Of a DNA stretch of 64,000 nt, positions 4,802 through 38,431 are shown one piece after another (within the stretch, counting starts at the first letter, position 1; the number at the start of each line of letters is the position of its first letter). Below the pieces are notes generated by a model. It made no database searches and was not told where the DNA came from. It worked only from the letters and a program-made list of their open reading frames with translations. This stretch comes from Bacteroidales bacterium (GTDB lineage Bacteria; Bacteroidota; Bacteroidia; Bacteroidales; DTGW01), in NCBI GenBank assembly GCA_049968755.1, contig JBMFQE010000004.1:140264-204263 (forward strand). The letters run 5' to 3'. The translations under genes were made by a program, and so were the position numbers.

Positions 4802-4902
4802 ATGAAACACCCATGTTCCTGCGAACGCAAACACAATAGTGATAAAATTGCGAACATGGGTGTTCCATTATACCTTTAAAAATTAATTTTATTATGATGA
4901 AA
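4802..4902 (+). mobile_element. 95-bp dispersed palindromic element, copy 1 (ATGAAA direct repeat at both ends)
   Basis: One substitution relative to the copy at 21951-22051; mobility inferred from dispersal and the flanking direct repeat. Confidence 0.8.
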
Positions 4903-5382
4903 TAATCACTACTAACCCATTGTAATTTTGATAAATAGGGCATCGTTCGATGATTTCGCTTAAAAGTTGAAGTTTTGGTTATACAACTACACTACTATAA
5001 ATGTGATTTGACCTTCTTTCTGGAAATTTTCTGTAAGAAAGTTTAGGACTCCTTGTCATTTTGCCCGAGTAAATAACCCACGCTGGCGAATTTGTTAAGG
5101 GTAAAACAATTGATGAAGTTGTTTGATTTTTCAAGGATATCATCGTCCTTGACAAATTATCCACTTTTGATTTTGGGTGGCTCAGGCAGGATGCCAAGGG
5201 AAAGCTGTATGCCAGAGTAGATACTACCAATATTAATTTATTAAATTTTGTCCAACTAATTAGGAGGTTAAGACAATTGGGATAAAAACGACTAATCTGG
5301 GTTAAAACAGTCAATACTATTTACCCAGAAAGCTGTAGAGGTTCTGCCTATCAGTTTGGTTGGATCGGATAGCAGACGGGAA

Positions 5383-5655
5383 TTAGTTGAGTTGGTTAGG
5401 TGTCAAAGATTGCCTATATGCTTGTAACAGCAATCTAAGAATAAGACTTTCCTCATGCTCAAGTAGCTGAGTACAATGTTGTTCAATGGCATTCAAATAT
5501 TCTTTATATTCTGCTGGGCAGCCACTATCGGATAAATTATGGTTTTTTAGTAAATATACATACCCCATAATGGCAAAGAGCATGTTGCGCGTCTGCTTAT
5601 GATGTTCAATCAGGTAGTTTTGATTCAGTTCGGGGGAAGGATAATTAAGAATCAT
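5383..5655 (-). CDS. Small protein resembling a stand-alone HisKA/DHp helical hairpin
   Basis: HHKQTRNMLFAIMGYVYLL resembles the H-box helix; second amphipathic helix EYLNAIEQHCTQLL. Confidence 0.45.
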   Translation of the reverse strand: MILNYPSPELNQNYLIEHHKQTRNMLFAIMGYVYLLKNHNLSDSGCPAEYKEYLNAIEQHCTQLLEHEESLILRLLLQAYRQSLTPNQLN

Positions 5656-5698
5656 AATCGTGAAATTGTAAGTAAAATAAAGCAGTAATCAAATTAAT

Positions 5699-5723
5699 AA
5701 GGCGGGGAATTACCCCGCCCTTT
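5699..5723 (-). terminator. Hairpin terminator after the T9SS protein gene
   Basis: GGCGGGG-aatta-CCCCGCC stem just past the stop at 5732. Confidence 0.6.
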
Positions 5724-5731
5724 AGAGATTA

Positions 5732-7240
5732 TTACTTTTTATAAATTTTCTGCATATCAGCAGCACCGTTTTGGTATTGAATTTTTAACAAATACAGTCC
5801 TGCGGGTAAAGCCTTAAAGTCGATCTGAGCCTGCAAATTGTTTATGTTGTACATCGATCGTATTTTTTTACCGGTTAAATCGAATACTTCCACATACAAA
5901 AGGTTAGAAGTACCATGAATGGTGAGCAGGTTGGAAACGGGATTGGGATAAATCTGCGACAGGTAGTTAACCTTAGCTACACCAACTTCATTTTTCACTA
6001 CCACATCAATGGTTGCCGATACGCCCGAGCCATCTTCAGCTACAGCTTTTACCGTTACGGTTCCGGCAGCTGTACCCGTCAGCATACCGGTTTCGCTGAT
6101 CGTAGCTTTATCTGCCCCCGATACGATCGACCATTTCACATCCTTATTGGCAGCATCGTTGGGCGAGATAGAAGCGGTTAACTGTATGCTTTCATTAATT
6201 TTGATGCTGTCTTCTGGCGTGGAAAGAGTGATGCTTGTCACGGGCTTGCCCCAATACGAACCTTTAGTTAGCAGGATAGAACCATTGCCAGGGAGGTACG
6301 ATGGAGCAGCATTGGTTACGTCAACAGGAAAGGCTAAATTAAGGGCAGCAAACGAAGTAGTATCGTTGTGTTTGCTGTTAGCCAGAAACCAATTGTACGG
6401 ACTGGTTAAAGGATTTGCCGTACCCTTGGTACCTACTGCTTTGGTACCATACCCTGCGAGTACCGAATACTGAATGGTTAGCGAGTCATCCTTTGCAGCA
6501 TTCTGGGTGGGGTCACCATCAATTACAAGACCTCCTTTTACATATTTAGTAGACACGAGGTTATAAATTTGCAAGCGCGTATTGCGGCGCAATAACAAGC
6601 CAACTTCATGTTTCTGGGTGGCCGAGTTATCCACACCTGGACCAATAAGCGTAATATTGCTGAATACTGCACTTGTATATGGTTTGTTGTAACTCGAGTT
6701 GGCATCGTTATCCGATTCAAAGCCACGTGCACCATCTGTATCGCAAATGTTTGGATTGCGAATAGCCAGCGCAAATTGCACATTACCCCTATAACCATAA
6801 TCGGTATCGAAGTCATCGTCTTCGGTAGCCAATGCAATCAAATAACGACAATTTACTGTGCCACCAAACCATTCGAAAGCATCGTCGCCGCTAAAGGAAA
6901 CCTGGACATATTCAATGGTGGTACCACTACCAACACTCCCCATTGTTAATCCGTTGATTTCATTGCCATTACCATCTATATCATACCCAGGAAACTCAAT
7001 TCGTACGTACCTCACCACGCCCGAATTATCATCCTCTATGGCTGGTCCATCGCCTATTCCATAGGTAGAACCAACTCCTCCTTCTATGGTTACATTGTTG
7101 CTCTTGTTATTGGTTGCTCGTCCCAACAAAATTAATCCTCCCCAATCACTAGGAGCACGTGAACCTTTGGGTTTTATCGATGTAAATATTGTGTTCTTTG
7201 CCCTGATTGCTAAGGTTGATGGTGGTGTAACGTGTTTCAT
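5732..7240 (-). CDS. T9SS-sorted beta-helix-like protein with Ig-like (Big_2) domain; N-terminus apparently missing, possible pseudogene
   Basis: IFTS..DWGGLILLG, DNSGVVRYVRIEFPG, NEINGLT, DDAFEWFGG, DDDFDTD; Big_2 segment (ASISPNDAANKDVKWS); IYPNPV CTD; no signal peptide. Confidence 0.75.
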   Translation of the reverse strand: MKHVTPPSTLAIRAKNTIFTSIKPKGSRAPSDWGGLILLGRATNNKSNNVTIEGGVGSTYGIGDGPAIEDDNSGVVRYVRIEFPGYDIDGNGNEINGLTMGSVGSGTTIEYVQVSFSGDDAFEWFGGTVNCRYLIALATEDDDFDTDYGYRGNVQFALAIRNPNICDTDGARGFESDNDANSSYNKPYTSAVFSNITLIGPGVDNSATQKHEVGLLLRRNTRLQIYNLVSTKYVKGGLVIDGDPTQNAAKDDSLTIQYSVLAGYGTKAVGTKGTANPLTSPYNWFLANSKHNDTTSFAALNLAFPVDVTNAAPSYLPGNGSILLTKGSYWGKPVTSITLSTPEDSIKINESIQLTASISPNDAANKDVKWSIVSGADKATISETGMLTGTAAGTVTVKAVAEDGSGVSATIDVVVKNEVGVAKVNYLSQIYPNPVSNLLTIHGTSNLLYVEVFDLTGKKIRSMYNINNLQAQIDFKALPAGLYLLKIQYQNGAADMQKIYKK

Positions 7241-7526
7241 ACGAAACGTATTCTATCTGCAGGATGTATTCACCCTCACCAATGTGTTCGAAAGAAAAGT
7301 TTCCATCAAAATCGGTATACACTTCCAGGTTACAATCTACCAGTTTTACCTTTGCCCCAACCAGCGGTTCGTGGGTAATCTTATCAACTACCTGGCCGGT
7401 TATCATCGTACCAGTACCGGATATACAGGCATTTTTAGTTACCTCAAAATTGGGTTTGTCGGAAGCTATCAATTGCAAACCCAAAAAACTTATGCAGGTA
7501 AGCAGAATCATTTTTTTCGTTTTCAT
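7149..7526 (-). CDS. Secreted carboxypeptidase-regulatory-like domain protein
   Basis: Signal peptide; ITGQVVDKITHEPLVGAKV...TDFDGNFSF...GEYILQIEYVSY. Confidence 0.8.
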   Translation of the reverse strand: MKTKKMILLTCISFLGLQLIASDKPNFEVTKNACISGTGTMITGQVVDKITHEPLVGAKVKLVDCNLEVYTDFDGNFSFEHIGEGEYILQIEYVSYETRYTTINLSNQGKEHNIYIDKTQRFTCS

Positions 7527-7772
7527 GGCCTTTATTATTTTTGATTTATAGCAAAAATATGGGTATTATATTAAGTGTTTGTAGTAAGTGGTTTAAATTA
7601 ACGTTATTAACATAAAATTAATATAAGGTGTTTTGGTATACTACTGAAATGAAATAAAGATTATGTAACATTAATAAGCATTATCAGCATGCGGAATGCA
7701 ATGTTAGCTTACAAGAATCGACGGTCAATTACAAAACCTTTGATGTACAAGTCGATTTTATCCAGCACCGCT

Positions 7773-7814
7773 ATAAAAATTAATCCCGACCAAAAAAAGC
7801 AGGTCGGGATTAAT
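7773..7814 (-). terminator. Intrinsic terminator after the MCP gene
   Basis: 13-bp inverted repeat ATTAATCCCGACC/GGTCGGGATTAAT with T-run on the minus strand. Confidence 0.75.
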
Positions 7815-7837
7815 ACCGTATAGTGCCAAATAGCATT

Positions 7838-9256
7838 TTAAAATCTTTCGTATTCGGCGTCCTTGCTATCGTCGTCGAACAGTCGTAGATTAAATCCTTT
7901 ATTTTTTACTTTAGTGGCGGCATCTGAAAGTGACTCTTTCTTTTCTGAAGCAGTATCAAGTTCTTTCCTGGTTCCAACCGGAGGCAAAGTAGCATTATCG
8001 TCTTTAATTTTTTCAGCAGATTTTGATTTTGCGCTGCTCACGCCAATTACTCTTTCTTCGAACCTGGCCTTGCGTTCTTCAGCCTTTTTATGGATAATAT
8101 CGGACAAAACAGAGGTATGATTGTCATTGCCATTGGTTTTGGCATCGAAGCGGAAAAATGCGGTGATTTCCCGTAGGGTTTCAGATTCTTTAGCCAGCTG
8201 AACAGCTGTTTGAGCAAGGCTATCCGACGATAAGGCATTTTGTTGAATAACCTGATTGAGCCGTTGCAAAGCATTGTTGATTTGTTCGGCACCAGCATTT
8301 TGTTCTACACTGGCTGCGCTTATATCCTGTACCAGCTTGGCTGTTCGTTCAATTTCGGGGGCAATGTGCTCAAGCTCGTGTGCTGCTGTTTCTGAAATGT
8401 TCACGCCTTTTGCCGAAAGTTCATTAATCTGGTCGGCAGCAATTTTACTACGTTCGGCCAGCTTGCGCACTTCGGCAGCAACCACCGCAAAACCCCGTCC
8501 GTGTTCACCTGCACGCGCAGCTTCAACAGCCGCATTTAAGGCAAGAATATTGGTTTGAAAGGCAATATCGCCAATAATCGAAATCTTTTCGGCAATGATT
8601 TTCATGGATTCGGCTGCGGTGGTAACCGATTCGTTCCCTTTCTTAATCCCTTTGGCTGCTTCGACAGCTATTCTTTCGGTTTGCTTCGAATTATCGGTAT
8701 TGGCCTGAATGTTAGCTACCATCTCTTCCATACTCGACGACACTTGCTGTGCCGAAGCTGCCTGATCGGCCGTACCCTGTGCCAATATGCTGGCTCCTTG
8801 ACTAATCTGCTCACTCAGCTTGACCAGGTTCTTCGAACTTTGCTGAATTTGCGTGGCTATCTCATTTAGTTTATTCACAAGCTGTTCCATCGAAACGGCC
8901 ATTTCGCCTATCTCATCGTGGCGATTTTTAACATTTGCATCGACCGTAGTTTTTAAGTTACCTTCTACCAACGAATCAATATTTGCCTTAATCGATCGTA
9001 GAGGTTTCTGTATCATACGAATGACCCATATATTGCTGGCAATCAACCATACACCCATCAACGGTACCAGCCAATAAGCATGCTTAATACCCAGGTATCC
9101 ATTGACAAATGCCAAAAAGGCAATGCCCAAGGAAATCAGAAAAATTAAATTGGATACATAAGTTACAATGGTCTGCTTAAAAAGTAATCGCACAACAAAC
9201 AAACCCACCGGAATGGCCAACACTAAAATCAGCAGAAAAATAAGCACATCATTCAT
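7838..9256 (-). CDS. Methyl-accepting chemotaxis protein (TM helices, HAMP, MCP signal domain)
   Basis: [40 protein letters not shown] hairpin tip; HAMP DEIGEMA; start placed at MNDVL. Confidence 0.93.
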
Positions 9257-9378
9257 AAGGTCGTATATTTTAAGTGACAAAAATACCAAAAAATATTTTT
9301 TAGGCTAATTTCTGATAAAGTTACTTTTTTTTACGAAAGAATTCTGGCTAAGTTGTAAAATTTAAAAAACTTTTGGTA

Positions 9379-10191
9379 TTAAAGGTTAAGAATATTTGTA
9401 ATAACCTGCAAGGAAATGGGTTCATCAGCGGGGACAATACGGTTTAATTTTCCTCTGATGCGTGTACCTACGCCCATAATACCACGCAGTCGTTGCTCAA
9501 TGTAGGGAAGACCTTGCTCAAGCACCAGAATCTCGTCGCAGGGATAGTAAATCGACTCTGCCAATTCACGTCCAAGTGGATAATGCTTAAGTTTAAGTAT
9601 AGGGTATGGTAACTGTGGGATTTGCTCTAATATATTTCCAATACTTCCGCAGGCAATGATGCCCAATGTTCTGTCGCTGCCATGTACAAGCGTATTAAAA
9701 GGCGAATGGGCTGAAAAAGTTTCCAGCGCTCTTATTCGATCAATGGGTGATAGCGACAAATAATTTTCAGGAAGTGGGATGTTTTCCGTATAATGCCCAA
9801 TAAAGGCCTGAGCTGCTGAAATGTTTGTCGGCTGCTGAAATTTAAAATCTTTAGGAATATGCACAATGATAGAAATGTTATGTTTTTCCGTAACAACGAG
9901 CGCTACTTGCAACATTAGGTAAAACTCTTCATCATTGGCAGGTTCCCAATAAGGCATTAAATACAGCTCAGCTACATAGCGCACGTCAATCCAGGGATGG
10001 TCGGAATGTACAAGGTATACCGTTGCAGCGTCTATCCTATTGCTGATTTCATTGGCAATATCTGTGGCAGTGCACATTACTACCCTTGCCGGTTCAGCCT
10101 GCGACGGCTGACTTTCCGGCATAAAATCAGGAAAATTTTTATGCCACTGGCTTGTGACGGTAACTGGTAAATTTTCTAACAATGTTTTCAT
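9379..10191 (-). CDS. Truncated, divergent indolepyruvate:ferredoxin oxidoreductase alpha-like protein
   Basis: LGIIACG, PILKLKHYPL, DEILVLEQGLPYIEQRLRG resemble the IorA middle domain; no C-terminal TPP-binding domain. Confidence 0.6.
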   Translation of the reverse strand: MKTLLENLPVTVTSQWHKNFPDFMPESQPSQAEPARVVMCTATDIANEISNRIDAATVYLVHSDHPWIDVRYVAELYLMPYWEPANDEEFYLMLQVALVVTEKHNISIIVHIPKDFKFQQPTNISAAQAFIGHYTENIPLPENYLSLSPIDRIRALETFSAHSPFNTLVHGSDRTLGIIACGSIGNILEQIPQLPYPILKLKHYPLGRELAESIYYPCDEILVLEQGLPYIEQRLRGIMGVGTRIRGKLNRIVPADEPISLQVITNILNL

Positions 10192-10682: not shown

Positions 10683-10693
10683 TGTGAGTATTT

Positions 10694-13600
10694 ATGGATT
10701 TACAAAGGCTACTGGAGATTTTTTCTGCGCATCCTCAATACAATCAACTCAAGGAAAACCTAAATAACGACTCATTCACTCCTCGTATCCAGCTTGCGGG
10801 ATTAAAAGGTTCAGCACGATCGCTATTGATTGCATGGCTGGCAAGGCAGAGTGTTCGAACCCATCTGGTACTATTGCCCGATAAGGAGGAGGCTCAATAT
10901 TTTGCTGGTGACATGATTCAATGTCTCGATCCAGCTCATGTGTTTTTATTTCCCTCATCCTACAAACATCCCGGGCAAAGTACCCGTATCGATCCAATAT
11001 CGGTTCTTCAACGGGCAGAGATATTGAATTATTTTATCCGTCGCCCCGATCATGCAACCGTTGTGGTTACCTATACCGATGCCATTGCCGAAAAAGTTGT
11101 AGCTCACCGGGATATTGCCCAGCATACGCTGACTGTTCACAGGGGAGAAAAGATCGACATGGATTTTTTGAGGGAAACTCTCGATGCATATGGATTTCAA
11201 CGGGTCGATTTTGTTTACGAACCAGGCCAGTATGCTCTGCGGGGCAGCCTTGTTGATGTTTTTTCGTTTGCCGCCCGTCATCCTTTTCGCATCGACTTTT
11301 TCGATGATGTAGTCGACTCCATCCGGAGCTTCGACATCGAAAGCCAGCTTTCCTTTGAAAAACTGGACAAAATTCAGATATTACCCGATATTAAGCAAAT
11401 AGAGTTGAGCGGATCCAAAATTTCGATGATCGAGTACCTGCCTGCCGATACCTGCTGCTGGATCCCGGATCATCGACTGATTAGCGGGCAGTTGGACAGT
11501 TTACCTAATATGCGTTGGGAGATCTATACTGAGGATGGTAGCAACGAAGGACAGCATAAGCCCGATCTTATCGGTAGCGAACATTTTCATTCCCTTTTGC
11601 AGCAAAGGTGCGTAATTGAATTTTCGGGATTAGAAAAACAAAACCATAATAAAATCATTTTCAACACATCAACCCAACCGGCTTTTCATAAAAAGTTTGA
11701 TCTCCTGGCCGAACATCTGCTCGATAATATTACAAAAGGCTATCGTACTATCATTTGCAGTGAAAATGAGAAACAACTCCAACGTCTGAAGGATATTTTT
11801 CGTTCGACACATCCAGAAGACCTTTTTGAACCCCTTCGGGCAGGATTTCATGAAGGATTTACCGACCACGACCTTAAAGTTTGTCTATACACCGATCATC
11901 AGATTTTCGAACGTTATCAACGGAGCCAGTTCGAGCGGCCGGTCAAAATTTCGCCCAAACACGTAATTCAGGAACTTTCCGATTTGCATCCCGGCGACTA
12001 TGTGGTACATATCGACCATGGTATTGGTATTTTTGGGGGTATCGAAAAAGTAGAAATCAACGGCAAATGGCAGGAGGTAATTAAATTGGTTTACCGGGAC
12101 AATGATGTGCTGTATGTGGGGGTTAACTCCCTTCACCGTATTTCGAAATATCGGGGCAAAGATGACGAACCTCCAAAAATCTATAAGCTGGGGAGCAATA
12201 ACTGGCAGAAGCTAAAGCAAGCTACCAAAAAGAAGATTAAGGATATAAGCCGTGAGCTGATAGCCCTTTATGCCAAACGTATCGAGACAAAAGGTTTTAG
12301 CTTCAGCCCCGACACCTATTTGCAGCAAGAACTTGAAGCATCGTTTATTTATGAAGATACACCCGACCAGGAAAAGGCAACACGCCTGGTAAAGCAGGCT
12401 CTGGAAAGCGAACATCCGGCAGACGTGCTGGTGTGCGGAGATGTAGGCTTTGGCAAAACTGAGGTTGCCATCCGGGCAGCCTTTAAGGCAGCAACCGATG
12501 GCAAACAAACGGCAGTGCTGGTTCCAACCACCATACTTGCCTTACAACACTACAAGACATTTAGCGAACGACTCAAAGATTTTCCGGTTAACGTCGAATA
12601 CATTAGCCGTAACCGCAAGCCCACTGAAATCCGTGAAATATTGCGTAAAGTTGAAAAAGGCGAAATAGATATACTAATTGGCACCCATAAATTGTTGGGC
12701 GGTAGTGTAAAATTCAAAGATTTGGGACTGCTCATCATCGACGAAGAGCAAAAATTTGGGGTAGCTATGAAAGAAAAACTCAAGGCTATGAAAGTAAATA
12801 TCGACTGTATATCACTTTCGGCAACCCCCATTCCGCGAACCCTACAATTTTCGCTGATGGGAGCCCGCGACCTGGCAATCATCAATACGCCACCCCCCAA
12901 TCGTTTTCCGGTTACCACCGAGATTCATACCTTTAATGAGCAAATTATTCGTCAGGGAATATTGAATGAGCTATCCCGGGGAGGACAGGTATTTTTTATC
13001 AACAATAGGATACAAACCATTTACGAGCTGGAGAAAAAATTGCAACAGATCGTACCCGAAGCTCGTATTGCAGTTACCCATGGCCAGATGGATGGTGACA
13101 AACTTGAAAATACCCTTTTTGCTTTCATTAACGGCGATTATGATGTACTGCTCACCACAGCTATCATCGAGTCGGGAGTGGATATTCCCAATGTCAATAC
13201 CATTTTTATCATGGATGCCCATCATTTTGGGCTCAGCGATCTTCATCAGCTTCGGGGAAGGGTGGGTCGATCGAATCGGAAGGCATATTGCTACCTGCTT
13301 ATTCCTTCTTTTCAGGTACTTACCGCTCAGGCCAAACGACGGTTAAAGGCTATTGAGGAAAATTCTGAACTGGGTAGCGGTTTTCAAATTGCCATGCTCG
13401 ACCTCGACATTCGAGGGGCTGGAAATCTGCTCGGTGCCGAACAAAGCGGCTTTATCGCCGAAATGGGTTACGAAACCTACCTGAATATTCTTCAGGAGGC
13501 TATTCAGGAGGTCAAGGAAGAGGAATATCGTGATTTATTTTTCAAGAAAGAAGAGCCTTTGTCAGATACTCAGAATGAAACTGTCAATGTGCTGGAAACC

Positions 13601-14074
13601 CACAAATTTGTCCTCGATTGCCAGATTGATACCGATTTTGAAATCATGCTCCCCGAATCGTACATCGAAAACATTACGGAACGCATTCGGCTTTACCGCG
13701 AGCTCGATGATTTAAATTCGGAAGAAGAGCTTAAACTTTTTGAACATAAGCTGACCGACCGTTTTGGACCCATTCCCGAACCAGCACAACAGCTTATGGA
13801 TATTGTCCGTTTGCGTCGTATGGCTATGCAGTTAGGCTTTGAACGAATATCCATTAAAAATGAACGAATGACCCTGTACTTCGTTCAAAATCAGCAATCA
13901 CCCTATTATCAATCGGAGATATTCGGGCATATCCTGCAATTTGTACAAAAGCATCCACAGGTATTCCGATTCCGCGAGAGCTCTGAGAAACCCTCTATGT
14001 ATACTCAGGGCATAAAAAATGTCAAAATGGCATTAGAGTTGCTACAAAAGTTACAACCAACCAATAACCAATGA
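10694..14074 (+). CDS. mfd: Transcription-repair coupling factor
   Basis: UvrB-like N-terminus, CarD/RID (GDYVVHIDHGIG), CGDVGFGKTEVA, DEEQKFG, SATPIPRTL, QLRGRVGRS, TRCF C-terminus. Confidence 0.97.
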   Translation: MDLQRLLEIFSAHPQYNQLKENLNNDSFTPRIQLAGLKGSARSLLIAWLARQSVRTHLVLLPDKEEAQYFAGDMIQCLDPAHVFLFPSSYKHPGQSTRIDPISVLQRAEILNYFIRRPDHATVVVTYTDAIAEKVVAHRDIAQHTLTVHRGEKIDMDFLRETLDAYGFQRVDFVYEPGQYALRGSLVDVFSFAARHPFRIDFFDDVVDSIRSFDIESQLSFEKLDKIQILPDIKQIELSGSKISMIEYLPADTCCWIPDHRLISGQLDSLPNMRWEIYTEDGSNEGQHKPDLIGSEHFHSLLQQRCVIEFSGLEKQNHNKIIFNTSTQPAFHKKFDLLAEHLLDNITKGYRTIICSENEKQLQRLKDIFRSTHPEDLFEPLRAGFHEGFTDHDLKVCLYTDHQIFERYQRSQFERPVKISPKHVIQELSDLHPGDYVVHIDHGIGIFGGIEKVEINGKWQEVIKLVYRDNDVLYVGVNSLHRISKYRGKDDEPPKIYKLGSNNWQKLKQATKKKIKDISRELIALYAKRIETKGFSFSPDTYLQQELEASFIYEDTPDQEKATRLVKQALESEHPADVLVCGDVGFGKTEVAIRAAFKAATDGKQTAVLVPTTILALQHYKTFSERLKDFPVNVEYISRNRKPTEIREILRKVEKGEIDILIGTHKLLGGSVKFKDLGLLIIDEEQKFGVAMKEKLKAMKVNIDCISLSATPIPRTLQFSLMGARDLAIINTPPPNRFPVTTEIHTFNEQIIRQGILNELSRGGQVFFINNRIQTIYELEKKLQQIVPEARIAVTHGQMDGDKLENTLFAFINGDYDVLLTTAIIESGVDIPNVNTIFIMDAHHFGLSDLHQLRGRVGRSNRKAYCYLLIPSFQVLTAQAKRRLKAIEENSELGSGFQIAMLDLDIRGAGNLLGAEQSGFIAEMGYETYLNILQEAIQEVKEEEYRDLFFKKEEPLSDTQNETVNVLETHKFVLDCQIDTDFEIMLPESYIENITERIRLYRELDDLNSEEELKLFEHKLTDRFGPIPEPAQQLMDIVRLRRMAMQLGFERISIKNERMTLYFVQNQQSPYYQSEIFGHILQFVQKHPQVFRFRESSEKPSMYTQGIKNVKMALELLQKLQPTNNQ

Positions 14075-14171
14075 AACACCCATGTTCCTACGAACGCAAA
14101 CACAATAGTGATAAAATTGCGAACATGGGTGTTCCATCATACCTTTAAAAATTAATTTTATTATGATGAAA
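14071..14171 (+). mobile_element. 95-bp element, copy 2; its leading ATGA contains the mfd TGA stop
   Basis: One substitution relative to copy 3; ATGAAA at 14071 and 14166. Confidence 0.8.
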
Positions 14172-14565
14172 AATAGCTGCATTACCATAACTGTAATTGC
14201 TTTCCTGGGCATACATTTGCAGTCTCCCCCCTTAGTAGAGCAATCCATAGTTTTTGAACGCGAAAAACTTTCCTCACACAACTGTTGTCAAACGGAACCT
14301 CTATGGTTACACGCTGCTATTGCTACGATTGAAACACAAAGTGGTGCAACTGTTCAGAATAAAAAATGCTGGCTCTTTCGTACTTTATTTTCAACTTCCA
14401 TTTGTGTAGGTAGTATTTTTTGGGGTAATGATAATATTGTGGTTGGAATAGCCGAAGTCGATCATAGGGTAGCTGTACATATTCAGTCAAAAATTATTAT
14501 TGAATCAATTATAGCAAACATGATACAGATGTACTTTCGTTCAATTAACTTAAAACCAATATCTT

Positions 14566-15930
14566 ATGCATGATTTAACCCAGGGACACGTTGGTAGACA
14601 AATATTTCGTTTTACGGTTCCCATACTGCTGGGTAACGTTTTCCAGCAGCTGTATCAGATTATCGATAGCATTGTGGTGGGGCACTATCTTGGCAAAGAG
14701 GCATTGGCTGCAGTTGGAGCCTCGTTTCCGCTCATATTTCTGGTATTGTCTTTTACCATTGGCATAGCCATGGCGGGTACTGTTATTGTATCGCAGTATT
14801 TTGGGGCTAAAGACTATGGTGGCGTAAAGCGAAGCGTTGATACACTCAATATCTTCCTGGTTGTCGCTGCTGTAGTTATAGCAGCTATTTCCATCATTTT
14901 TAGTCAGAAAATATTCAGATTAATGCAATTGCCCGATGAAATTATTCCTCCTGCTGTAAGTTTTTTCAATGTGATGATGCTGGGAACGGTTTTTAGTTTT
15001 GGATTCAATGGTACTACAGCGGTTTTACGGGGTATGGGCGATTCTAAAACACCCCTTTACTTTTTGATAACCAGTACCGTGCTGAATATTTTGCTTGATC
15101 TGATTTTTATAGTAGGCTTTCGTTGGGGCATAAACTCTGTAGCCTGGGCTACGGTAATTTCACAAGGCTGTGCGCTGTGCGCACTGGTGTTTTATCTCAA
15201 CAAACGACATGCTATCATAAAATTCAATCCTTCCGACATTAGATTCGATACAGAAATTTTCACCAAAGCCTTGAAAATAGGTTTACCTATTGGCATGCAG
15301 CAATCATTTGTGGCTTTGGGCATGATGGCGTTGATGGTTATCGTAAACAGTTTTGGCACCAATGTTATTGCGGCATATTCCGTTGCCTGGCGAATCGATA
15401 GCTTTGCCTCCATGCCCGGGATGAATCTGGCTATTGCACTCTCGGCCTTTGTGGGTCAAAATATGGGTGCGCATCGTACCGAAAGGGTCGTGACGGGCCT
15501 TAAAGTCACCCTGCTCATGGCCAGTACAGTTGCTGTGGTGATGTCGATTGTAGCCTATGGTTGGGGCAACTACCTTATGCAGGTGTTTACCAGCGATACA
15601 GAGGTTATTGCTATCGGGCATCAGTACCTAAAAATTGTTGGAATGTTTTACCTTGCCTTCAACTCCATGTTTATTATTGGTGCTGTGATGCGGGGAGCCG
15701 GCGATACTTTCATTCCCATGTTACTTTCGCTGTTCTCCCTGTGGGTCGTTCGACTGCCTTTAGCCTATTTTCTTTCCCGACATTTTCACGAAATAGGCAT
15801 CTGGTGGTCGATCCCCATTGGCTGGACCCTTGGAACACTGCTTAGCTTTGCCTATTACAAGATGGGACGCTGGAAAAACAAGGTTATTGTTGATAATAAA
15901 GAAATAATTCCCGAATCAGGGTTAAATTAA
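14566..15930 (+). CDS. MATE family efflux transporter
   Basis: DLTQG...PILLGNVFQQLYQIIDSIVVG, LRGMGDSKTP, about 12 TM segments. Confidence 0.93.
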   Translation: MHDLTQGHVGRQIFRFTVPILLGNVFQQLYQIIDSIVVGHYLGKEALAAVGASFPLIFLVLSFTIGIAMAGTVIVSQYFGAKDYGGVKRSVDTLNIFLVVAAVVIAAISIIFSQKIFRLMQLPDEIIPPAVSFFNVMMLGTVFSFGFNGTTAVLRGMGDSKTPLYFLITSTVLNILLDLIFIVGFRWGINSVAWATVISQGCALCALVFYLNKRHAIIKFNPSDIRFDTEIFTKALKIGLPIGMQQSFVALGMMALMVIVNSFGTNVIAAYSVAWRIDSFASMPGMNLAIALSAFVGQNMGAHRTERVVTGLKVTLLMASTVAVVMSIVAYGWGNYLMQVFTSDTEVIAIGHQYLKIVGMFYLAFNSMFIIGAVMRGAGDTFIPMLLSLFSLWVVRLPLAYFLSRHFHEIGIWWSIPIGWTLGTLLSFAYYKMGRWKNKVIVDNKEIIPESGLN

Positions 15931-21950: not shown

Positions 21951-22051
21951 ATGAAACACCCATGTTCCTGCGAACGCAAACACAATAGTGATAAAATTGC
22001 GAACATGGGTGTTCCATCATACCTTTAAAAATTAATTTTATTATGATGAAA
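21951..22051 (+). mobile_element. 95-bp element, copy 3 (consensus)
   Basis: ATGAAA at 21951 and 22046; internal 17-bp inverted repeat with one mismatch. Confidence 0.8.
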
Positions 22052-22185: not shown

Positions 22186-23253
22186 ATGAAACTAACTTTT
22201 AGAAAAAAACAGAATCAAACGCCAAGAATTATTTTAGCGCGGAAGGATTATAAGCTCCGCCAGAAAATTTTAAACTTTTTGTTTTTTCTGGTTCTTTCAA
22301 CTTTCTTTTGGCTACTCCGAGTGCTAGACAATGATTATACTACCCAGCTCAAGGTCCCAATAGAGTATATACCCTATCGCTCCGATATTGAAATGGTAGG
22401 CGATATACCCAGCACCCTTTCACTCAATGTTACCGGCCAGGGATACACACTGGTAAAAAAAATTTTCACCGCTTCTCAACATCCTGTGGTGTTGCATGTA
22501 CTGGCTTTAAATCTTCGCCCAGTTGATGCAAAAAACAATAGTTATTATGCACTTACCCACTATCTGAAGGAAAACGTTCAGCGACAGATTGGACCCGAGT
22601 TGAGGTTGAACTATATACTGCCCGATACCCTATGGTATACCTTTTCGCCGGTTGAGAAAAAAAGGGTAAAGGTGGTCCCTGCTATTCGAATCAAATTTGT
22701 TAAGCAATATATGCTTGAGGGTGATTATATTGTTCAGCCCGATTCGGTGGTGGTTACTGGACCCCATGTTATCCTCGATACCCTTTCGGCGGTTTATACC
22801 GAAAATGCTTCGTATATCGGGATTTTTCGCTCATTTACCCGCACACTTAAAATCCAACCAATAAACGACGTAAGTATAGAACCCAAAGAAGTAATGGTAA
22901 CTGTTCCCGTTGAAAAGTTTACCCAGGCTACCATCAAGGTACCCATTAAACCCATTAATGTCCCCGATAGCTTGCAGTTGCTCCTATTCCCATCGACAGT
23001 TACAGTTGACTATCTGGTATCGCTCAAAAATTTCAACAAGGTAAAAAGCACACAGTTCCTGATTACTGCCGATTATTACGATTGTTTTTCTGCGGTTAAT
23101 AAAATAAGTGTTCGCATCGAGAGATATCCTTACATGCTTAAGCTGATTAATTATTCTCCCAAAAGTGTAGAATTTTTGATAGAACACAAACCACTTGCCG
23201 GACAAAAAATAAAGCCAACTTTGAATGATACGCCAATAATTTCTGGAAAATAA
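22186..23253 (+). CDS. YbbR/CdaR-like protein
   Basis: N-terminal TM (FLFFLVLSTFFWLL), repeated beta domains (PDSVVVTGP, VPVEKFT); usual position before coaE in Bacteroidota. Confidence 0.8.
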   Translation: MKLTFRKKQNQTPRIILARKDYKLRQKILNFLFFLVLSTFFWLLRVLDNDYTTQLKVPIEYIPYRSDIEMVGDIPSTLSLNVTGQGYTLVKKIFTASQHPVVLHVLALNLRPVDAKNNSYYALTHYLKENVQRQIGPELRLNYILPDTLWYTFSPVEKKRVKVVPAIRIKFVKQYMLEGDYIVQPDSVVVTGPHVILDTLSAVYTENASYIGIFRSFTRTLKIQPINDVSIEPKEVMVTVPVEKFTQATIKVPIKPINVPDSLQLLLFPSTVTVDYLVSLKNFNKVKSTQFLITADYYDCFSAVNKISVRIERYPYMLKLINYSPKSVEFLIEHKPLAGQKIKPTLNDTPIISGK

Positions 23254-23884: not shown

Positions 23885-23915
23885 ACCTATAAAAATTAAT
23901 TTTATTATGATGAAA
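23885..23915 (+). repeat. 3' fragment of the 95-bp element, forming the initiation region and start codon of the 23907 gene
   Basis: ACCTATAAAAATTAATTTTATTATGATGAAA matches the element tail at 30/31 positions. Confidence 0.6.
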
Positions 23916-28410: not shown

Positions 28411-28420
28411 TATTCTAAAT

Positions 28421-30016: not shown

Positions 30017-30034
30017 TATTTAAATTTTACAAAT

Positions 30035-33280: not shown

Positions 33281-34051
33281 CTAAGTTAGTATAGATTGTA
33301 AAAAGTCCCGGATATTGTGTTCCATGTTTCCCTGCTTTTCAAGGGTTTGAATAAAGGCCGTACCAATAATACCTCCGCGGGCATAGCGACAGGCTGTCGA
33401 GAATGTGTCTCGATCGCGAATTCCAAACCCTACCATTACTGGGTGTTTTAAACGCATGGCTTCTAGACGTTTAAAATAAGCCTGTGATGCATCCAGCGGC
33501 TTGCTACCTCCCGTTGTCGAATAACTCGAGACTGCATATAGGAAGCCTTCGGTAATGCTATCGATGTAGCGAATACGTTCTTCAGACGTTTGAGGGGTTA
33601 CGAGCAAAACGTGATAAAGGCCGTACCGACGGGCAATAGTCATGTATTGTTGTCGGTATTCTTCGACGGGCAGGTCGGGGATGATAAACCCATCGACCCC
33701 AACCTTAGCACAGCTTTTGCAAAAGTTTTCAAATCCATACTGGTACACCGGATTAAAATACCCCATAAGCAAAACCGGGATATGGACGGTCGAACGCATA
33801 TCCTGTAGTTGTTCAAATAGCAGGGATAGCGACATTCCGTTCTTCAGGGCAACCGTACTGCTGTGCTGAATAATGGGGCCATCGGCCAGCGGATCCGAAA
33901 AGGGCATACCCAGCTCAACCATGTGGGCACCATATTGCTGAACCCATTGAAGGATTGGGATAGTATCGTTAAGACGGGGAAATCCTGCTGTAAAATAGAT
34001 AGAAAGTATTTTTTTATCGTTCTGTACAAAAACATTATCAATTCTGTTCAT
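33281..34051 (-). CDS. trpA: Tryptophan synthase alpha chain
   Basis: ELGMPFSDPLADGPIIQ, LMGYFNP, IPDLP, VGFGI. Confidence 0.96.
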   Translation of the reverse strand: MNRIDNVFVQNDKKILSIYFTAGFPRLNDTIPILQWVQQYGAHMVELGMPFSDPLADGPIIQHSSTVALKNGMSLSLLFEQLQDMRSTVHIPVLLMGYFNPVYQYGFENFCKSCAKVGVDGFIIPDLPVEEYRQQYMTIARRYGLYHVLLVTPQTSEERIRYIDSITEGFLYAVSSYSTTGGSKPLDASQAYFKRLEAMRLKHPVMVGFGIRDRDTFSTACRYARGGIIGTAFIQTLEKQGNMEHNIRDFLQSILT

Positions 34052-34087
34052 GATCAATCATTTAAATTACGCTACTACAATGCTTTT

Positions 34088-35278
34088 CTACATTGATTGC
34101 TGCATGTAACGGATGTAGGTATCCATATCCTTATCGCCGCGTCCCGAGATGTTAACCACCACGCAGTCGGAAGGTTTGAAATTGATTTTTTTGAGCGCGG
34201 CTAAGGCATGAGCCGATTCGAGGGCAGGGATTATTCCCTCAAGCCGGGTTAGTTCAAAGGCTGCCTGCAGGGCCTCTTCGTCGGTTGCACTCATGATACG
34301 GGTTCGTCCAATTGCATAAAGATGTGCATGTTGTGGCCCTATGCCGGGATAATCGAGGCCGGCTGATATGGAGTAGGGTTCAATTATTTGGCCATCGGAG
34401 GTTTGCAGCAGATAAGTTTTAGCTCCTTGAATAATACCAATGGTTCCGCGGGCAATTGAGGCTGCTGTTTCAGGGGTATCAATACCTTTGCCGGCTGCCT
34501 CCACTGCTATCAGCTGTACCTCAGTACGATCGAGGTAATGGAAGAAAGCGCCGATAGCGTTGCTGCCTCCACCAATGCAAGCCACAATATGGGTAGGATT
34601 TTCATTGCCAGTCAGTTCCTTGAGTTGCCACTGCATTTCTTCGCTAATGATGGCCTGTAATCGGGCTACCATGTCGGGGTAAGGATGGGGACCCACTACC
34701 GAGCCAATCAGATAGTAGGTATCCTCGGGGTTGCTTATCCAATCGCGCAGGGCCTCATTTCCGGCATCTTTCAGTGTTTTGTTGCCGCTTACTGCGGGTA
34801 TCACCTCGGCCCCCAGCATTTTCATCCGCAGCACATTGGGCATCTGACGTTGTACATCGGTCTCGCCCATGTATACCACACACTGCATACCCATGAGGGC
34901 GCACACCGTTGCCGTAGCTACTCCGTGCTGACCAGCTCCTGTCTCAGCAATGATACGCTTCTTGCCCATTATTTTTGCAATGAGAATTTGCCCGATAGTA
35001 TTGTTAATCTTATGCGACCCCGTATGGTTTAAGTCCTCACGCTTCAAAAAAATCTGCGTATTGTATACCTGCGAAAGTCGCTGCGCATGGTATAATGGCG
35101 AAGGCCGTCCTACATAATACTTTAGAAGTCGACGGTATTCAAGCTGAAACGACTCGCTGTCAAGTATTGACCGATAATGTTGTCGCAACTCCTCAATGTT
35201 GTGATGCAGCATCTCGGGAATGTAGGTTCCCCCAAACTGGCCAAAAAAGCCATTCTCATCGGCAAAATAGTTTGTCAT
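34088..35278 (-). CDS. trpB: Tryptophan synthase beta chain
   Basis: KREDLNHTGSHKINN, AETGAGQHG, SAGLDYPG, SGRGDKD. Confidence 0.97.
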   Translation of the reverse strand: MTNYFADENGFFGQFGGTYIPEMLHHNIEELRQHYRSILDSESFQLEYRRLLKYYVGRPSPLYHAQRLSQVYNTQIFLKREDLNHTGSHKINNTIGQILIAKIMGKKRIIAETGAGQHGVATATVCALMGMQCVVYMGETDVQRQMPNVLRMKMLGAEVIPAVSGNKTLKDAGNEALRDWISNPEDTYYLIGSVVGPHPYPDMVARLQAIISEEMQWQLKELTGNENPTHIVACIGGGSNAIGAFFHYLDRTEVQLIAVEAAGKGIDTPETAASIARGTIGIIQGAKTYLLQTSDGQIIEPYSISAGLDYPGIGPQHAHLYAIGRTRIMSATDEEALQAAFELTRLEGIIPALESAHALAALKKINFKPSDCVVVNISGRGDKDMDTYIRYMQQSM

Positions 35279-35898
35279 AACCGTTCAATAAATCTTTTTA
35301 TTAATCCTATATCTTTCATGCCGGGTTGAATCTCAAATCGGCTATTAATGTCGATAGCAAAAAATTGCGGATGGTTAAATTGCTGGATATCCTGTACATC
35401 ATCAGGTCCCAGCCCACCGCTAAGAAAAAACGGTAAGGGAACTTCAATACGTTGTAGCACTGACCAATCGAACTTTTTTCCGCTACCACCATACTGGCTG
35501 GTGGGAGTATCGAAAAGAAAATAGTCGCAAACGTGCTGATACGATGATGTCTGCGACAATGTAATATCCTTTGCTGCAAAAGATTTGACTACGGGGATAC
35601 CTTTATTTTTCAAGGTAAAGCAAAAATCGGGACTCTCGTAACCGTGTAGTTGTACCAGGTCGAGCCGATAACGATCATAAAATGTGATTACTTCGTCAAC
35701 AGATGCATTAACAAAAACGCCCACTTTTTTGATAGGTTGTGCTACCTGCAGTATAGTTCTAACAGGCATTTCACCAGCATATCGGGGTGATTTGGGGTAA
35801 AAAATGAATCCCATATAATGTATGGGCAATTGGCTGAGCTGACGAATATTTCCCTCGTCGCGCATGCCACATACCTTTATTTTAAATCTTTCGTTCAT
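35275..35898 (-). CDS. trpF: Phosphoribosylanthranilate isomerase
   Basis: IKVCGM, VGVFVN, VQLHG, GGSGKKFDW, LSGGL. Confidence 0.95.
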   Translation of the reverse strand: MNERFKIKVCGMRDEGNIRQLSQLPIHYMGFIFYPKSPRYAGEMPVRTILQVAQPIKKVGVFVNASVDEVITFYDRYRLDLVQLHGYESPDFCFTLKNKGIPVVKSFAAKDITLSQTSSYQHVCDYFLFDTPTSQYGGSGKKFDWSVLQRIEVPLPFFLSGGLGPDDVQDIQQFNHPQFFAIDINSRFEIQPGMKDIGLIKRFIERL

Positions 35899-36686
35899 AA
35901 TGCTTTATTCAATGCTTCCAGAAAATTCCTGCATGCCGTTTCTGGTGACTCTTGCTTCATAAAATACTCCCCAATAAGGAAAGCATCAAAACCTGCTGAT
36001 GAAAGAATATTAGCATCTTCGACCGAATGTATTCCGCTTTCGGCAATTTTTAAACAATTTCTTGGCAAGCTATTGCAAATTTGTTTCGAGTGGTTGAGGT
36101 CAACCTCAAAATTTTTGAGATTTCGGTTATTTACTCCTACCAATCGGGCTTCTTTGGGAAGTTTGTCGATTTCGTCGATGTCGTGGATTTCGAACAGGGT
36201 TTCAAGTCTCAGTGAAGTTGCAAGCTGTGACAATTCGAGCATTTCTGTCGCTGTAAGGCATGCAGCTATGAGAAGGATGACGTCGGCCCCCATAGCTTTT
36301 GCCTCATATACCTGATAGGGGTCTACGATGAAATCTTTGCGCAAAATGGGAATTCTAATCTGTGCGCGAACATTAATTAAATCTTTCGGACTTCCTCCAA
36401 AAAACTTTTCGTCTGTGAGTATCGATATTCCTGCTACACCTGCGTGCATGTAGCCTACCGTGGTTTGCACCACATCTGACAGATCGTTGATTATGCCTTT
36501 TGAAGGAGATTTTCGCTTATATTCAGCTATAACAGCTTTTCCCTTTTTACCCTCAATGCTTTCGGCAAGTGAAAAAGGAATACGCTGAAATAAACTTGAA
36601 TTGCACAGCACTTCAACCGGTGTTATCTGCTTTTTTTCTTTAACCTCTTGTCGTTTGTAGTGAATAATATCGTCGAGAATAGACAT
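35895..36686 (-). CDS. trpC: Indole-3-glycerol phosphate synthase
   Basis: IAEYKRKSPSKG, LRKDFI, GVNNRNL, AESGI. Confidence 0.96.
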   Translation of the reverse strand: MSILDDIIHYKRQEVKEKKQITPVEVLCNSSLFQRIPFSLAESIEGKKGKAVIAEYKRKSPSKGIINDLSDVVQTTVGYMHAGVAGISILTDEKFFGGSPKDLINVRAQIRIPILRKDFIVDPYQVYEAKAMGADVILLIAACLTATEMLELSQLATSLRLETLFEIHDIDEIDKLPKEARLVGVNNRNLKNFEVDLNHSKQICNSLPRNCLKIAESGIHSVEDANILSSAGFDAFLIGEYFMKQESPETACRNFLEALNKAL

Positions 36687-36699
36687 AGGACAATTTTTT

Positions 36700-37692
36700 T
36701 TACTGCATTTCCAACAATTTTTTTAGGGTAGCCAGTGCTTTACCGTTTAACAGGGAATCTCTGGCAATTTCGATACACTCCGCGAGCGGTTTTTCAGGCT
36801 CAAGGCAATGGATACCCACAGCACTATTCGCAATCACCACATTGGTTTGCTCGGGTGTGCCTTTACCCTCCAGAATCCGCATAAAAATATCCACCGATTC
36901 GTCAACGGTACTACCAGCAGCCAATTTATTTGGCTCGACGCGCTTAAATCCGAGTTCCTCTGGCTGATATATCTGTTCCCAGTTTCGCGAAGCCAGTTTA
37001 AATGGTCCAGTCAGCGATATTTCGTCATATCCGTCAAGGCTGTAGAGGATGATGTAATTTTTGTCGGACTGTTGATAGAGGTAGTTGTACATTCGCATCA
37101 GCTCAAGGCTAAATACACCCACCATCTGATTTTTGGGGAAGGTAGGATTGATAAGCGGTCCAAGTATATTGAAAAAAGTACGTACACCCAGATCTTTCCG
37201 GACGGGGGCTACATTTTTCATGGCAGGATTGAAAAATGGGGCATGCAGATAGCAGATACCTGCTTGTTCAATTTCTTTTTTTAGCTTGGCTTCATCGGCT
37301 AAAAACTTATAGCCAAGTTTTTCCATGATATTGGACGATCCACAACCTGATGATACGCCATAATTGCCATGCTTGGTAACCTTATATCCGGCGCCGGCCA
37401 CCACAAACGACGATAAGGTTGAAATGTTAAAGGTGTTTTTTTCGTCGCCGCCTGTACCACAAAGATCGATGGTTGCGTAACCATCGAAACGAACAGGGAT
37501 GCATAATTCTAACAGCGCATCCCGAAAGCCCGCTAATTCGTCGAGCGTTATATTGCGCATCAGATATACACTCAAAAAAGAGGCTATCTGCGAGTGATTG
37601 TACTCTCCCTTAGCCATGTTGGTTAATACCATTTTGGCTTCTTCCCGGCTAAGGGTTTTATGAGAATAGAGGTAGTTCAAAATATTTTTCAT
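36700..37692 (-). CDS. trpD: Anthranilate phosphoribosyltransferase
   Basis: DLCGTGGD, NISTLS, KHGN, DGYDEIS. Confidence 0.96.
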   Translation of the reverse strand: MKNILNYLYSHKTLSREEAKMVLTNMAKGEYNHSQIASFLSVYLMRNITLDELAGFRDALLELCIPVRFDGYATIDLCGTGGDEKNTFNISTLSSFVVAGAGYKVTKHGNYGVSSGCGSSNIMEKLGYKFLADEAKLKKEIEQAGICYLHAPFFNPAMKNVAPVRKDLGVRTFFNILGPLINPTFPKNQMVGVFSLELMRMYNYLYQQSDKNYIILYSLDGYDEISLTGPFKLASRNWEQIYQPEELGFKRVEPNKLAAGSTVDESVDIFMRILEGKGTPEQTNVVIANSAVGIHCLEPEKPLAECIEIARDSLLNGKALATLKKLLEMQ

Positions 37693-37753
37693 GGTTTGCT
37701 ATTTTTTAATCCATTGAGTTAATTTGCTCATTACGCATTTCCAATTTTAAAGT

Positions 37754-38338
37754 CTATTTTGGGGATGCATGATATATCCAGTTAGCAATTATTTTTTCAC
37801 CGAAGGGGGTAAGGATACTTTCGGGATGGAACTGAACTCCCCTTACATCGTAATTCACATGTCGGGCAGCCATTATTTGTCCCTGTTTATCGATGGCGGT
37901 CACTTCGAGGCAATTGGGCAATTGGTTGCGGCTCACTATCCACGAATGATAGCGTCCGGCCTCAAATATTTCGGGTACTCCGTCAAAAAGGGGCTCATCA
38001 TTTACCGTTTGAATGATAGTGGTGGCAACCCCATGATAAACCTGGTTTAAATTTTCAAGGCTGGCTCCAAATACTTCGCCAATAGCCTGTAAGCCCAAAC
38101 AAACCCCAAAGATGGATTTTTCTGAGGCCCAGCGTTGTATTACCGGTTTCAGGATGCCCGATTCGTCGGGTATACCGGGGCCAGGGGATAGCACAATTTT
38201 ATCGAAATCCTTGAAAAAATCGGGTTCCACCTCATCGTTGCGGACTACCACAATTTTTTGGCCAGCAATTTTTTCAATGGCATGCACCAGGTTGTAGGTA
38301 AACGAATCGTAATTATCGAGTACTGCAATTCTCATCAT
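37754..38338 (-). CDS. trpG: Anthranilate synthase component II
   Basis: DNYDSFTYNL, SPGPG, GVCLG, RYHS, QFHPES. Confidence 0.95.
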   Translation of the reverse strand: MMRIAVLDNYDSFTYNLVHAIEKIAGQKIVVVRNDEVEPDFFKDFDKIVLSPGPGIPDESGILKPVIQRWASEKSIFGVCLGLQAIGEVFGASLENLNQVYHGVATTIIQTVNDEPLFDGVPEIFEAGRYHSWIVSRNQLPNCLEVTAIDKQGQIMAARHVNYDVRGVQFHPESILTPFGEKIIANWIYHASPK

Positions 38339-38431
38339 AATAAAATATTAATTTTTAAAGGTATGATGGAACATCATGTTCGCAATTTTATCACTATTGT
38401 GTTTGCGTTCGCAGGAATATGGGTGTTTCAT
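38332..38431 (-). mobile_element. 95-bp element, copy 4, on the trpG start codon (ATGA direct repeat)
   Basis: Reverse-complement copy with two substitutions and two small indels; its terminal ATGATGA is the trpG start. Confidence 0.8.

Follow-up and report, generated by a model that had tools for sequence, protein, structure and literature searches.

A probable mobile repeat family from a Bacteroidales genome, bounded by ATGAAA words, whose ends rebuild an interrupted start codon

Introduction

Rickettsia palindromic elements (RPEs) and IStrons are selfish DNAs whose design limits the harm done to the gene that they interrupt, RPEs being translated in frame and IStrons splicing themselves from the RNA. 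Correia elements of Neisseria, which are roughly 100-150 bp long and present in ~100 or more copies, lie adjacent to genes and have terminal inverted repeats and a TA duplication. No mobile element that rebuilds an interrupted start codon with its own ends is known to us, and we found no description of a start-codon-regenerating repeat in the literature. Repetitive extragenic palindromic (REP) repeats are palindromes of 20-40 nt that flank the gene of their transposase. Their GTAG or CGTC head is described in PMC3733652. Stem-loops of the insertion sequence (IS) IS605 near Borrelia lipoprotein genes, as presented in the relevant part of PMC2775950, are a separate phenomenon. Here we analyze a short repeat present in four copies in a 64,000-nt stretch of Bacteroidales DNA (the window), which corresponds to positions 140264-204263 of contig C4 of a draft genome, G000 (3.0 Mb, 50 contigs, 42% G+C, 98.9% complete). 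We conclude that this repeat likely represents a small, non-autonomous, word-specific and hairpin-bearing family of mobile elements, with an architecture that rebuilds the start codon it has interrupted.

A high-copy repeat between two ATGAAA words

A reading of the window from its letters alone (the sequence-only reading) had reported four copies of the repeat with unrelated flanks, and both the places and the lack of flank similarity were confirmed in the sequence. The position reported for the fourth copy was correct, but its end runs to 38330 once the right hexamer, ATGAGA, is included. The copies, and a fragment that also lies in the window, are as follows:

4802..4902, plus strand: copy 1, both ATGAAA hexamers included; intergenic, between open reading frames (ORFs) 2767-4725 and 4979-5314, both on the minus strand
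14071..14171, plus strand: copy 2; its left hexamer supplies the TGA stop of an mfd-like ORF (10694-14074) and its right hexamer opens ORF 14163-14573
21951..22051, plus strand: copy 3, identical to the query unit; intergenic, with ORF 22186-23253 starting 135 bp downstream
38330..38431, minus strand: copy 4; left ATGAAA at 38431-38426, right ATGAGA at 38335-38330, which is the start codon of a trpG-like ORF
23885..23915, plus strand: a 3'-tail-only fragment consisting of the H2 region (see below) and ATGATGAAA, directly before an ORF beginning MKKQILMFVAGW

Three of the 4 window copies share a 68-nt core at no more than one mismatch, a pattern found in none of 100 shuffles, and the minus-strand copy 4 differs from the other three by small indels. 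The expectation that many more copies would exist genome-wide was borne out, since blastn with the unit recovered 101 copies covering at least 80 nt in G000, along with 2 partial hits, one of them the tail-only fragment at 23885-23915. These copies are mostly 95-100% identical, and 57 of the 101 are exactly 101 nt long.

ATGAAA is found at the left end of 92 of the 101 copies, at the right end of 87, and at both ends of 79. T stands at position -1 in 69 copies and A at +1 in 68, and the preceding 10 nt are rich in A and T (~76%, against 66% for free sites); beyond the T and the A the flanks are unrelated. The flanking repeat is therefore one fixed sequence, unlike a target-site duplication of varying sequence. 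The fixed core proposed earlier holds in the sense that both ends carry a fixed word, but this word is longer than ATGA, being ATGAAA with a preference for T at -1. Variants of the right hexamer fall mostly at positions 4-6 (CAC, ACA, AGA, CAA, AAT) and those of the left hexamer at positions 1-3 (GTG, TTG, ATA), so that the exact crossover point within ATGAAA cannot be fixed.

Orthologous sites lacking the element were found in related genomes. At the trpG start, the place of the G000 element is taken in G001, G004, G007, and G008 by a short spacer and a single ATGAAA, and clean single-ATGAAA counterparts exist for 4 further G000 sites (C3:300963 in G001 and G002; C1:343309, C7:57709, and C1:351531 in G002). 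Of the two empty sites that the sequence-only reading had reconstructed, that at trpG is thus clean, but the mfd junction is not, with ~420 extra bp in G000. Nor did G001 and G002 offer a clean, syntenic counterpart for the sites at C3:294235, C3:311096/311612, C7:55966, and C1:348389. Scans of metagenome contigs, one with a 31-nt flank from mfd and one with a 33-nt head of the element, returned 0 matches. In the G002 orthologue of the C7:46832 site, the start codon bears a member of another subfamily, and the G000 copy sits 30 bp upstream, so this spacer has received independent insertions in the two genomes. The near-identity of the 101 copies and the precise empty sites with one ATGAAA uphold the earlier description of a recently active non-autonomous element.

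Several other features of G000 were observed alongside these copies. The extra DNA at window positions 14172-14565 (~420 bp), which includes the 136-aa ORF 14163-14573, and at C3:293600-294250 (~590 bp) lies beside copies and has no counterpart in the orthologous spacers of these two relatives, G001 and G002. The blocks that flank the copy at C1:338283-338383 (C1:337000-340000; locus L137, 1-2857) are mutually inverted relative to G001 and G002, which may be an element-associated rearrangement. Further low-copy subfamilies occur at C20:7771, C27:2129, and C3:146912 (e.g., CGGATGGAACCCAC... on the opposite strand), and more than one lineage of the family is therefore present in this genome. Short stretches of window positions 5017-5280 match several G001 contigs at 76-88% identity, in a multi-copy-like manner as with transfer RNAs.

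Two hairpins and an internal complement of the terminal word

The unit reads, in order, ATGAAA, a first hairpin (H1; AACACCCATGTTC / GAACATGGGTGTT, with a loop of about 33-35 nt), CCAT, a second hairpin (H2), and AAA. H2 consists of CATCATA and TATGATG around an AT-rich loop of 20 nt, such that the regenerated ATG pairs with the internal CAT. H1 stems are 12-16 bp long and H2 stems 6-7 bp. In copy 3 these parts are located as follows, all on the plus strand:

21955..22013: H1, arms 21955-21966 and 22002-22013, with a 35-nt loop
21951-21953 with 22015-22017: extension of H1, in which the 5' ATG pairs with CAT across a conserved A.C mismatch
22012..22017: TTCCAT, the invariant internal hexamer and almost the complement of ATGAAA, with a CAT that can pair with either terminal ATG
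22015..22048: H2, CATCATA (22015-22021) with TATGATG (22042-22048), the regenerated ATG being 22046-22048
21951..22028: 25-codon upstream ORF made by the insertion, MKHPCSCERKHNSDKIANMGVPSYL followed by a stop; unconserved across subfamilies

Folding of the unit is far more stable than that of shuffled sequences (z = -4.9 as RNA and -4.6 as DNA). The CAT after H1 has two possible partners: the 5' ATG, in which case H1 is extended, or the 3' ATG within H2. The A.C mismatch in the extended H1 is kept in 14 of 15 family sequences. The sequence-only reading was correct that terminal inverted repeats are lacking, since the 5' end (ATGAAACACCC) does not match the 3' end when the latter is read as its reverse complement (TTTCATCATAAT), but it overlooked that the element is strongly structured, with two conserved hairpins. 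The sole inverted repeat is H1, which ends 34 nt inside the 3' end. None of the Rfam covariance models matched the window at gathering score, and none matched at E <= 1 in six loci with diverse members.

The 25-codon ORF that opens at the left ATGAAA stops 17 nt short of the right ATGAAA and is intact in 73 of 101 copies. A peptide function for this ORF was considered and rejected, as the ORF is unconserved (2 codons in one G004 copy, other frames elsewhere).

Copies at gene starts

In 59 of the 101 copies an ORF of 100 aa or more starts at the right ATGAAA, compared with 23% of 1976 plus-strand ATGAAA words (odds ratio 4.7). In order to compare classes of sites, copies were removed in silico and genes were called crudely (greedy longest ORFs, 2341 genes, 89% coding), with the following result:

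Predicted starts: 53 element sites, 326 free ATGAAA words
Intergenic: 36 element sites, 513 free ATGAAA words
"Intragenic": 10 element sites, 2890 free ATGAAA words
Gene edge: 2 element sites, 40 free ATGAAA words

Several of the 10 "intragenic" element sites are actual starts with an upstream in-frame ATG that were miscalled. The element thus occupies 14% of ATGAAA words at starts (53/379), 6.6% of intergenic ones, and 0.3% of those inside genes. T at -1 increases occupancy, and with T at -1 together with A at +1 the element is found at 26 of 105 words at starts, 11 of 78 between genes, and 5 of 264 inside them. The near-absence of copies inside genes is best read as purifying selection, and the excess at gene starts comes partly from selection as well. 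Occupancy of starts exceeds that of intergenic words by 2.3-fold (p = 2.5e-4), which may reflect an extra context preference, better retention, or errors of the gene caller. The earlier suggestion that the element targets start and stop codons holds only in part, since the word itself is the target and selection removes the intragenic copies.

Six of the downstream proteins were checked (TrxB, PdxA, FabD, ThiC, RimO, and RfbA), and all are full-length equivalogs aligned from profile position 1-2, which indicates that the regenerated ATG is the working start and that the insertions are compatible with expression of housekeeping genes.

This distribution suggests how an insertion would play out. 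Each copy would come to lie between two ATGAAA words, with T preferred just before, one word being derived from the target and the other carried by the element or duplicated upon insertion. Since ATGAAA (Met-Lys) is a very common gene start in G000, landing on a start leaves the old ATGAAA upstream and a fresh one before the gene. The old word would then open a short ORF, and the fresh word, with an AT-rich leader, would precede an intact gene. Insertions at starts would be tolerated in this way, and those into intragenic ATGAAA words would be purged by selection.

The family in other genomes

Among 41 related genomes, blastn detected the unit in 12. A covariance model derived from a 15-row alignment of diverse members extended the family to 19 of the 41, including all 9 others of the same family-level group. 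The numbers of covariance-model matches were:

G000: 99
G001: 60 (72 in a second count)
G021: 57
G007: 44
G013: 37
G009: 32
G006: 28

An exact scan of 185,579 species genomes for the 16-mer head returned at least 96 stretches, chance matches among them; true members among the matches listed belong to records titled Bacteroidales, Bacteroidota, Rikenella, Rikenellaceae, Marinilabiliaceae, Chitinophaga, and Cloacibacterium. The unit had no match in plasmid and phage collections, and viral contigs scanned for the head and arm gave 0 matches.

Three words are constant across subfamilies: the 5' ATGAAA, the internal TTCCAT, and the 3' ATGAAA. H1 is 90% paired over the 15 sequences, with a stem sequence that varies by subfamily, and 5 of 6 H1 stem types pair fully or with one mismatch:

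G000: AACACCCATG / CATGGGTGTT
G004: AATAGCCATG / CATGGCTATT
G003: AACCCACATG / CGTGTGGGTT
G040: AATACCCATG / CATGGGTATT and AATACTCATG / CATGAGTATT
G001, G002, and G010: AACGAGCATG / CATGCGAGTT, with a tandem G.A/A.G mismatch

H2 always takes the form CAT-NNN paired with NNN-ATG, and fully complementary triplets include ATG, ATA, CGT, CAG, CTG, CGG, and CAC. Pairing of both stems is preserved across subfamilies by compensatory changes. Some subfamilies have extra hairpin modules, either between H1 and H2 or within the H1 loop.

A pair of covarying arms is also what would be expected of inverted repeats bound by a single protein, and a classical MITE (a miniature transposable element with inverted repeats) of the DDE type could be imagined here, with a strictly sequence-specific target-site duplication of 6 bp (or of 3 bp, ATG) and with the H1 arms as the repeats bound by the transposase. 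ATGAAACACCCATGTT and AACATGGGTGTTCCAT do form a 16-bp inverted repeat with one mismatch, and DDE_Tnp_1 fragments are present in G000. This inverted repeat is not terminal, however, and a conserved 34-nt tail that includes H2 moves along with it in all subfamilies, H2 covarying independently. The DDE copies are moreover degenerate fragments without shared ends, and there is no element with a gene between the arms. We regard a DDE MITE as very improbable.

Among 41 members examined in relatives, 32 open an ORF of at least 100 aa, a count in which three tandem pairs and one locus are entered twice. Members also stack head to tail: in G001, 11 tandem pairs overlap by exactly 6 nt, which is one shared ATGAAA, and therefore the regenerated word is again a target. 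Composite arrays are found at loci L057, L077, L106, and L115, and at L057 two subfamilies are joined via a shared ATGAAA before a gene whose product looks like phosphoglycerate kinase.

The strand that folds was examined with the same alignment. In the 15 sequences, the sense strand of H1 has 6 G.T wobbles and 0 A.C mismatches outside position 4 (p = 0.03), which weakly hints that folding of the sense strand has been kept over long times, and the strand so kept could be single-stranded DNA or a messenger RNA (mRNA) leader. New stem mutations in the young G000 copies show no strand bias (9 versus 13).

These observations bear on the idea that the repeat is primarily a functional 5' leader cassette, with an upstream ORF and a start-hiding hairpin (e.g., a translational or thermosensing switch), kept by selection and only secondarily mobile. 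H2 pairs with the ATG of the gene in every case, in seven stem variants, the wobble pattern of the sense strand, which is the mRNA strand, fits folding of that strand, and the 32 of 41 members that precede long ORFs in relatives (some double-counted) would be expected as well. The downstream genes, on the other hand, share no common function, 36 of the 101 G000 copies are intergenic and away from starts, and the upstream ORF is unconserved. Neither the lack of strand bias among new stem mutations nor the finding that sister species carry different subfamilies at different sites favors selection for a leader, and we consider this explanation improbable. The upstream ORF and the masked start codon may plausibly affect translation. 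To our knowledge, the Bacteroidota are a phylum without initiation led by Shine-Dalgarno sequences.

The search for a mobilizer

The observation that no transposase is nearby proved general, as none lies within or adjoining any copy; no genes were found inside or beside copies either in G000 or in 80 loci from the 16-mer head scan. Profile searches of G000 gave no match to the TnpB Zn-ribbon, to reverse transcriptase (RVT_1), to the IS110 DEDD domain, or to resolvase (serine recombinase). A search for Y2 enzymes in G000 also gave no match, but its control likewise matched nowhere, so this result is little informative. The DDE_Tnp_1 copies of G000 are degenerate fragments only. IS4/IS5-like DDE fragments were considered as the parent element and rejected, since they are degenerate and have unrelated ends.

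G000 contains two genes of the Phage_integrase family (317 and 295 aa). A site-specific recombinase, for example one of these two Xer-like tyrosine recombinases, could in principle join a folded or circular element to a chromosomal ATGAAA through a crossover core of 6-7 bp. An identical word of 6-7 bp on both sides is expected from core-type recombination (attL/attR), and regeneration of the target would account for tandem stacking. By number and size, however, the two genes look like housekeeping XerC/D. No binding arms flank the core in the targets, where the flanks share nothing but the T at -1 and the A at +1, and the more than 3,700 free ATGAAA words far exceed the sites used by any known tyrosine recombinase. 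Recombination of this kind is very improbable as the source of the copies.

Y1 HUH genes are the only intact transposase-like genes that we found in G000. The canonical one, at C1:434033-434464, encodes 144 aa with the HUH motif EHVHLL and the Tyr motif YIRQQQQVH, and its protein aligns end to end, though weakly, with IS608 TnpA. It is flanked by a ybaK-like gene and recQ in G000, G001, and G002 and adjoins the ybaK-like gene in G007 and G008. Its identities of 78% and 54%, versus 84% and 81% for the ybaK-like gene, show that it evolves faster than its neighbors. The Tyr motif resembles the Y---Q--HH signature of "subclass 1.2", whose members are described in the portion of PMC6006769 devoted to them as low-copy, limited to Cyanobacteria and Bacteroidetes, and without cognate REPs or repeats.

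Across 41 Y1 loci, no head or arm motif of the element was found beside the gene, except for REP-like look-alikes in L150 and L156. In these two loci, which come from element-bearing genomes, the Y1 genes are flanked by small hairpins followed by (T)CCATC, as in the H1-TTCCATC of the element. At L150 (900-2450; genome G043), a 157-aa Y1 gene with a YILNQEEHH motif has on either side arrays of hairpins reading GAACCGC-NNN-GCGGTTC and then CATCAAT, and a second, partial copy of the Y1 gene follows. The account in PMC6006769, in the part that covers subclass 1.2, has these genes generally without such REP-like flanking structures. A hairpin with CCATC occurs in 8 of 340 hairpins near Y1 genes, all at these two loci, and in 3 of 314 in control contigs; it is only a lead.

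G000 also has Y1 genes or fragments that resemble those of REP-associated tyrosine transposases (RAYTs; NHIH...YIVDNP), at C42 (a 754-bp contig), C9:61725-62267, C9:118697-119176, and C22:72-514. GC-rich palindromes are inserted within their coding sequence, which fits the description of "subclass 2.4" in the corresponding part of PMC6006769. These genes, the subclass-2.4-like one on C42 included, do not track the element across related genomes.

Two conserved hairpins point to a single-stranded intermediate. We tentatively propose, as a possibility that is somewhat more likely to fail than to hold, that the element moves as a folded single strand in which TTCCAT presents the terminal ATGAAA words to an HUH Y1 (IS200-like) enzyme acting in trans. 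The internal TTCCAT, between the hairpins, would pair with the terminal ATGAAA, and the Y1 enzyme would cut and rejoin there. Candidate mobilizers are the orphan subclass-1.2-like Y1 genes, represented in G000 by C1:434033-434464. A Y1 mobilizer is favored because other enzyme classes were eliminated, because genomes free of PF01797 mostly lack the element, and because of the hairpin motif at L150 and L156. Among the 7 PF01797-free relatives, 6 are without the element, and the seventh, G040, has 8 copies with a decayed 5' hexamer in 3 of 5 viewed. IS200-like Y1 HUH genes are thus the best mobilizer candidate, although this role is unproven.

In a bolder version, the orphan subclass 1.2 Y1 HUH proteins of Bacteroidota would have their missing substrate in this family, with one TTCCAT guide and two ATGAAA cleavage words in a single-strand transposition system; since ATGAAA is the commonest gene start, the family would home to, rebuild, and stack on gene starts, placing an upstream ORF and a start-hiding hairpin before 2-3% of genes and rewiring translation initiation genome-wide. 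We consider this version unlikely as a whole.

A number of results weigh against mobilization by Y1 enzymes or against homing to starts. An autonomous copy with the same ends was not found in G000, in the 80 head-scan loci, or in 29 Y1 loci, nor did these yield the longer element around a recombinase, HUH, or reverse transcriptase gene that the sequence-only reading had proposed to look for. The C1 Y1 gene has no flanking hairpins or repeats, its intergenic gaps being 7 bp and 0 bp, and the hairpin with CCATC occurs at only 2 of 41 Y1 loci. The element is present in 18 of 34 genomes with PF01797 versus 1 of 7 without, a difference with a Fisher p of 0.10 among genomes that are not independent. 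G021 has 57 copies ~82% identical to those of G000, yet its best Y1 is 24% identical, and the G001 Y1 is 78% identical, yet G001 carries a different element subfamily; by these comparisons, Y1 similarity does not track element similarity. IS608-type elements show an orientation bias relative to replication, and the copies show none relative to local GC skew (36 versus 41, in a crude test on a draft assembly). The ends of IS200/IS605 elements carry mutually similar hairpins, and H1 and H2 here are unlike each other. Finally, since the excess at starts is only 2.3-fold over intergenic words, targeting of start codons beyond the hexamer is not shown.

Two other groups of contigs were observed in G000 outside the window. 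C30, C34, C37, and C46 carry a regularly spaced repeat, with translations repeating FNSTMVRLK and FQFHYGSIKR, and look like clustered regularly interspaced short palindromic repeat (CRISPR) arrays broken from the assembly. The 936-bp contig C41 has an ORF (...WPPRSCDLTPLDYFLW...) that we take to resemble a eukaryote-type mariner/Tc1 transposase, and this contig may be bin contamination or a horizontal fragment.

Significance and comparison with known systems

The element sits on ~14% of the ATGAAA gene starts of G000 and on 25% of those in the preferred context, fabD and trxB among them, and so offers a natural experiment in Bacteroidota translation initiation behind a structured leader. It also calls for caution in annotation, as start codons beside the element invite miscalls and its 25-codon ORF may pass for a gene. 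For a class of Y1 HUH proteins of no known function, the family is a concrete candidate as substrate, and a short, word-specific, scar-tolerant insertion system could have practical interest.

With the non-autonomous IS200/IS605 elements known as palindrome-associated transposable elements (PATEs), the element shares a lack of terminal inverted repeats, hairpins near both ends, and one specific short insertion word. There is likewise no variable duplication, empty sites are seamless, and Y1 genes are the only intact transposase-like genes of the host. It differs from PATEs in that its word is a hexamer found at both ends, that H1 and H2 differ in sequence, length, and loop, and that its guide-like TTCCAT follows H1 on the 3' side, in the sense strand. 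Furthermore, no parent IS with the ends of the element around tnpA was found at the 41 Y1 loci, and there is no strand bias versus GC skew.

REP repeats, REP doublets forming hairpins (REPINs), and their RAYTs resemble this system in being hairpin repeats of high copy number that a single-copy, vertically inherited Y1 gene may serve in trans. Unlike them, the element has no GTAG or CGTC head, the Y1 gene of G000 is not flanked by repeats, and a fixed word bounds the copies, which sit at start codons. A classical MITE differs from the element by its terminal inverted repeats and its varying duplication; no parent IS was found in G000 or the 80 head-scan loci, a search that is not exhaustive. 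Correia elements are similar in size, copy number, adjacency to genes, and a likely change in expression, but the element has neither their terminal inverted repeats nor their TA duplication. Like RPEs and IStrons, it limits the harm of its insertion, and it differs from both in rebuilding the start codon at the level of DNA. Among described systems, the element is most like the non-autonomous elements derived from IS200/IS605 and the REPINs, yet it fails tests that define both.

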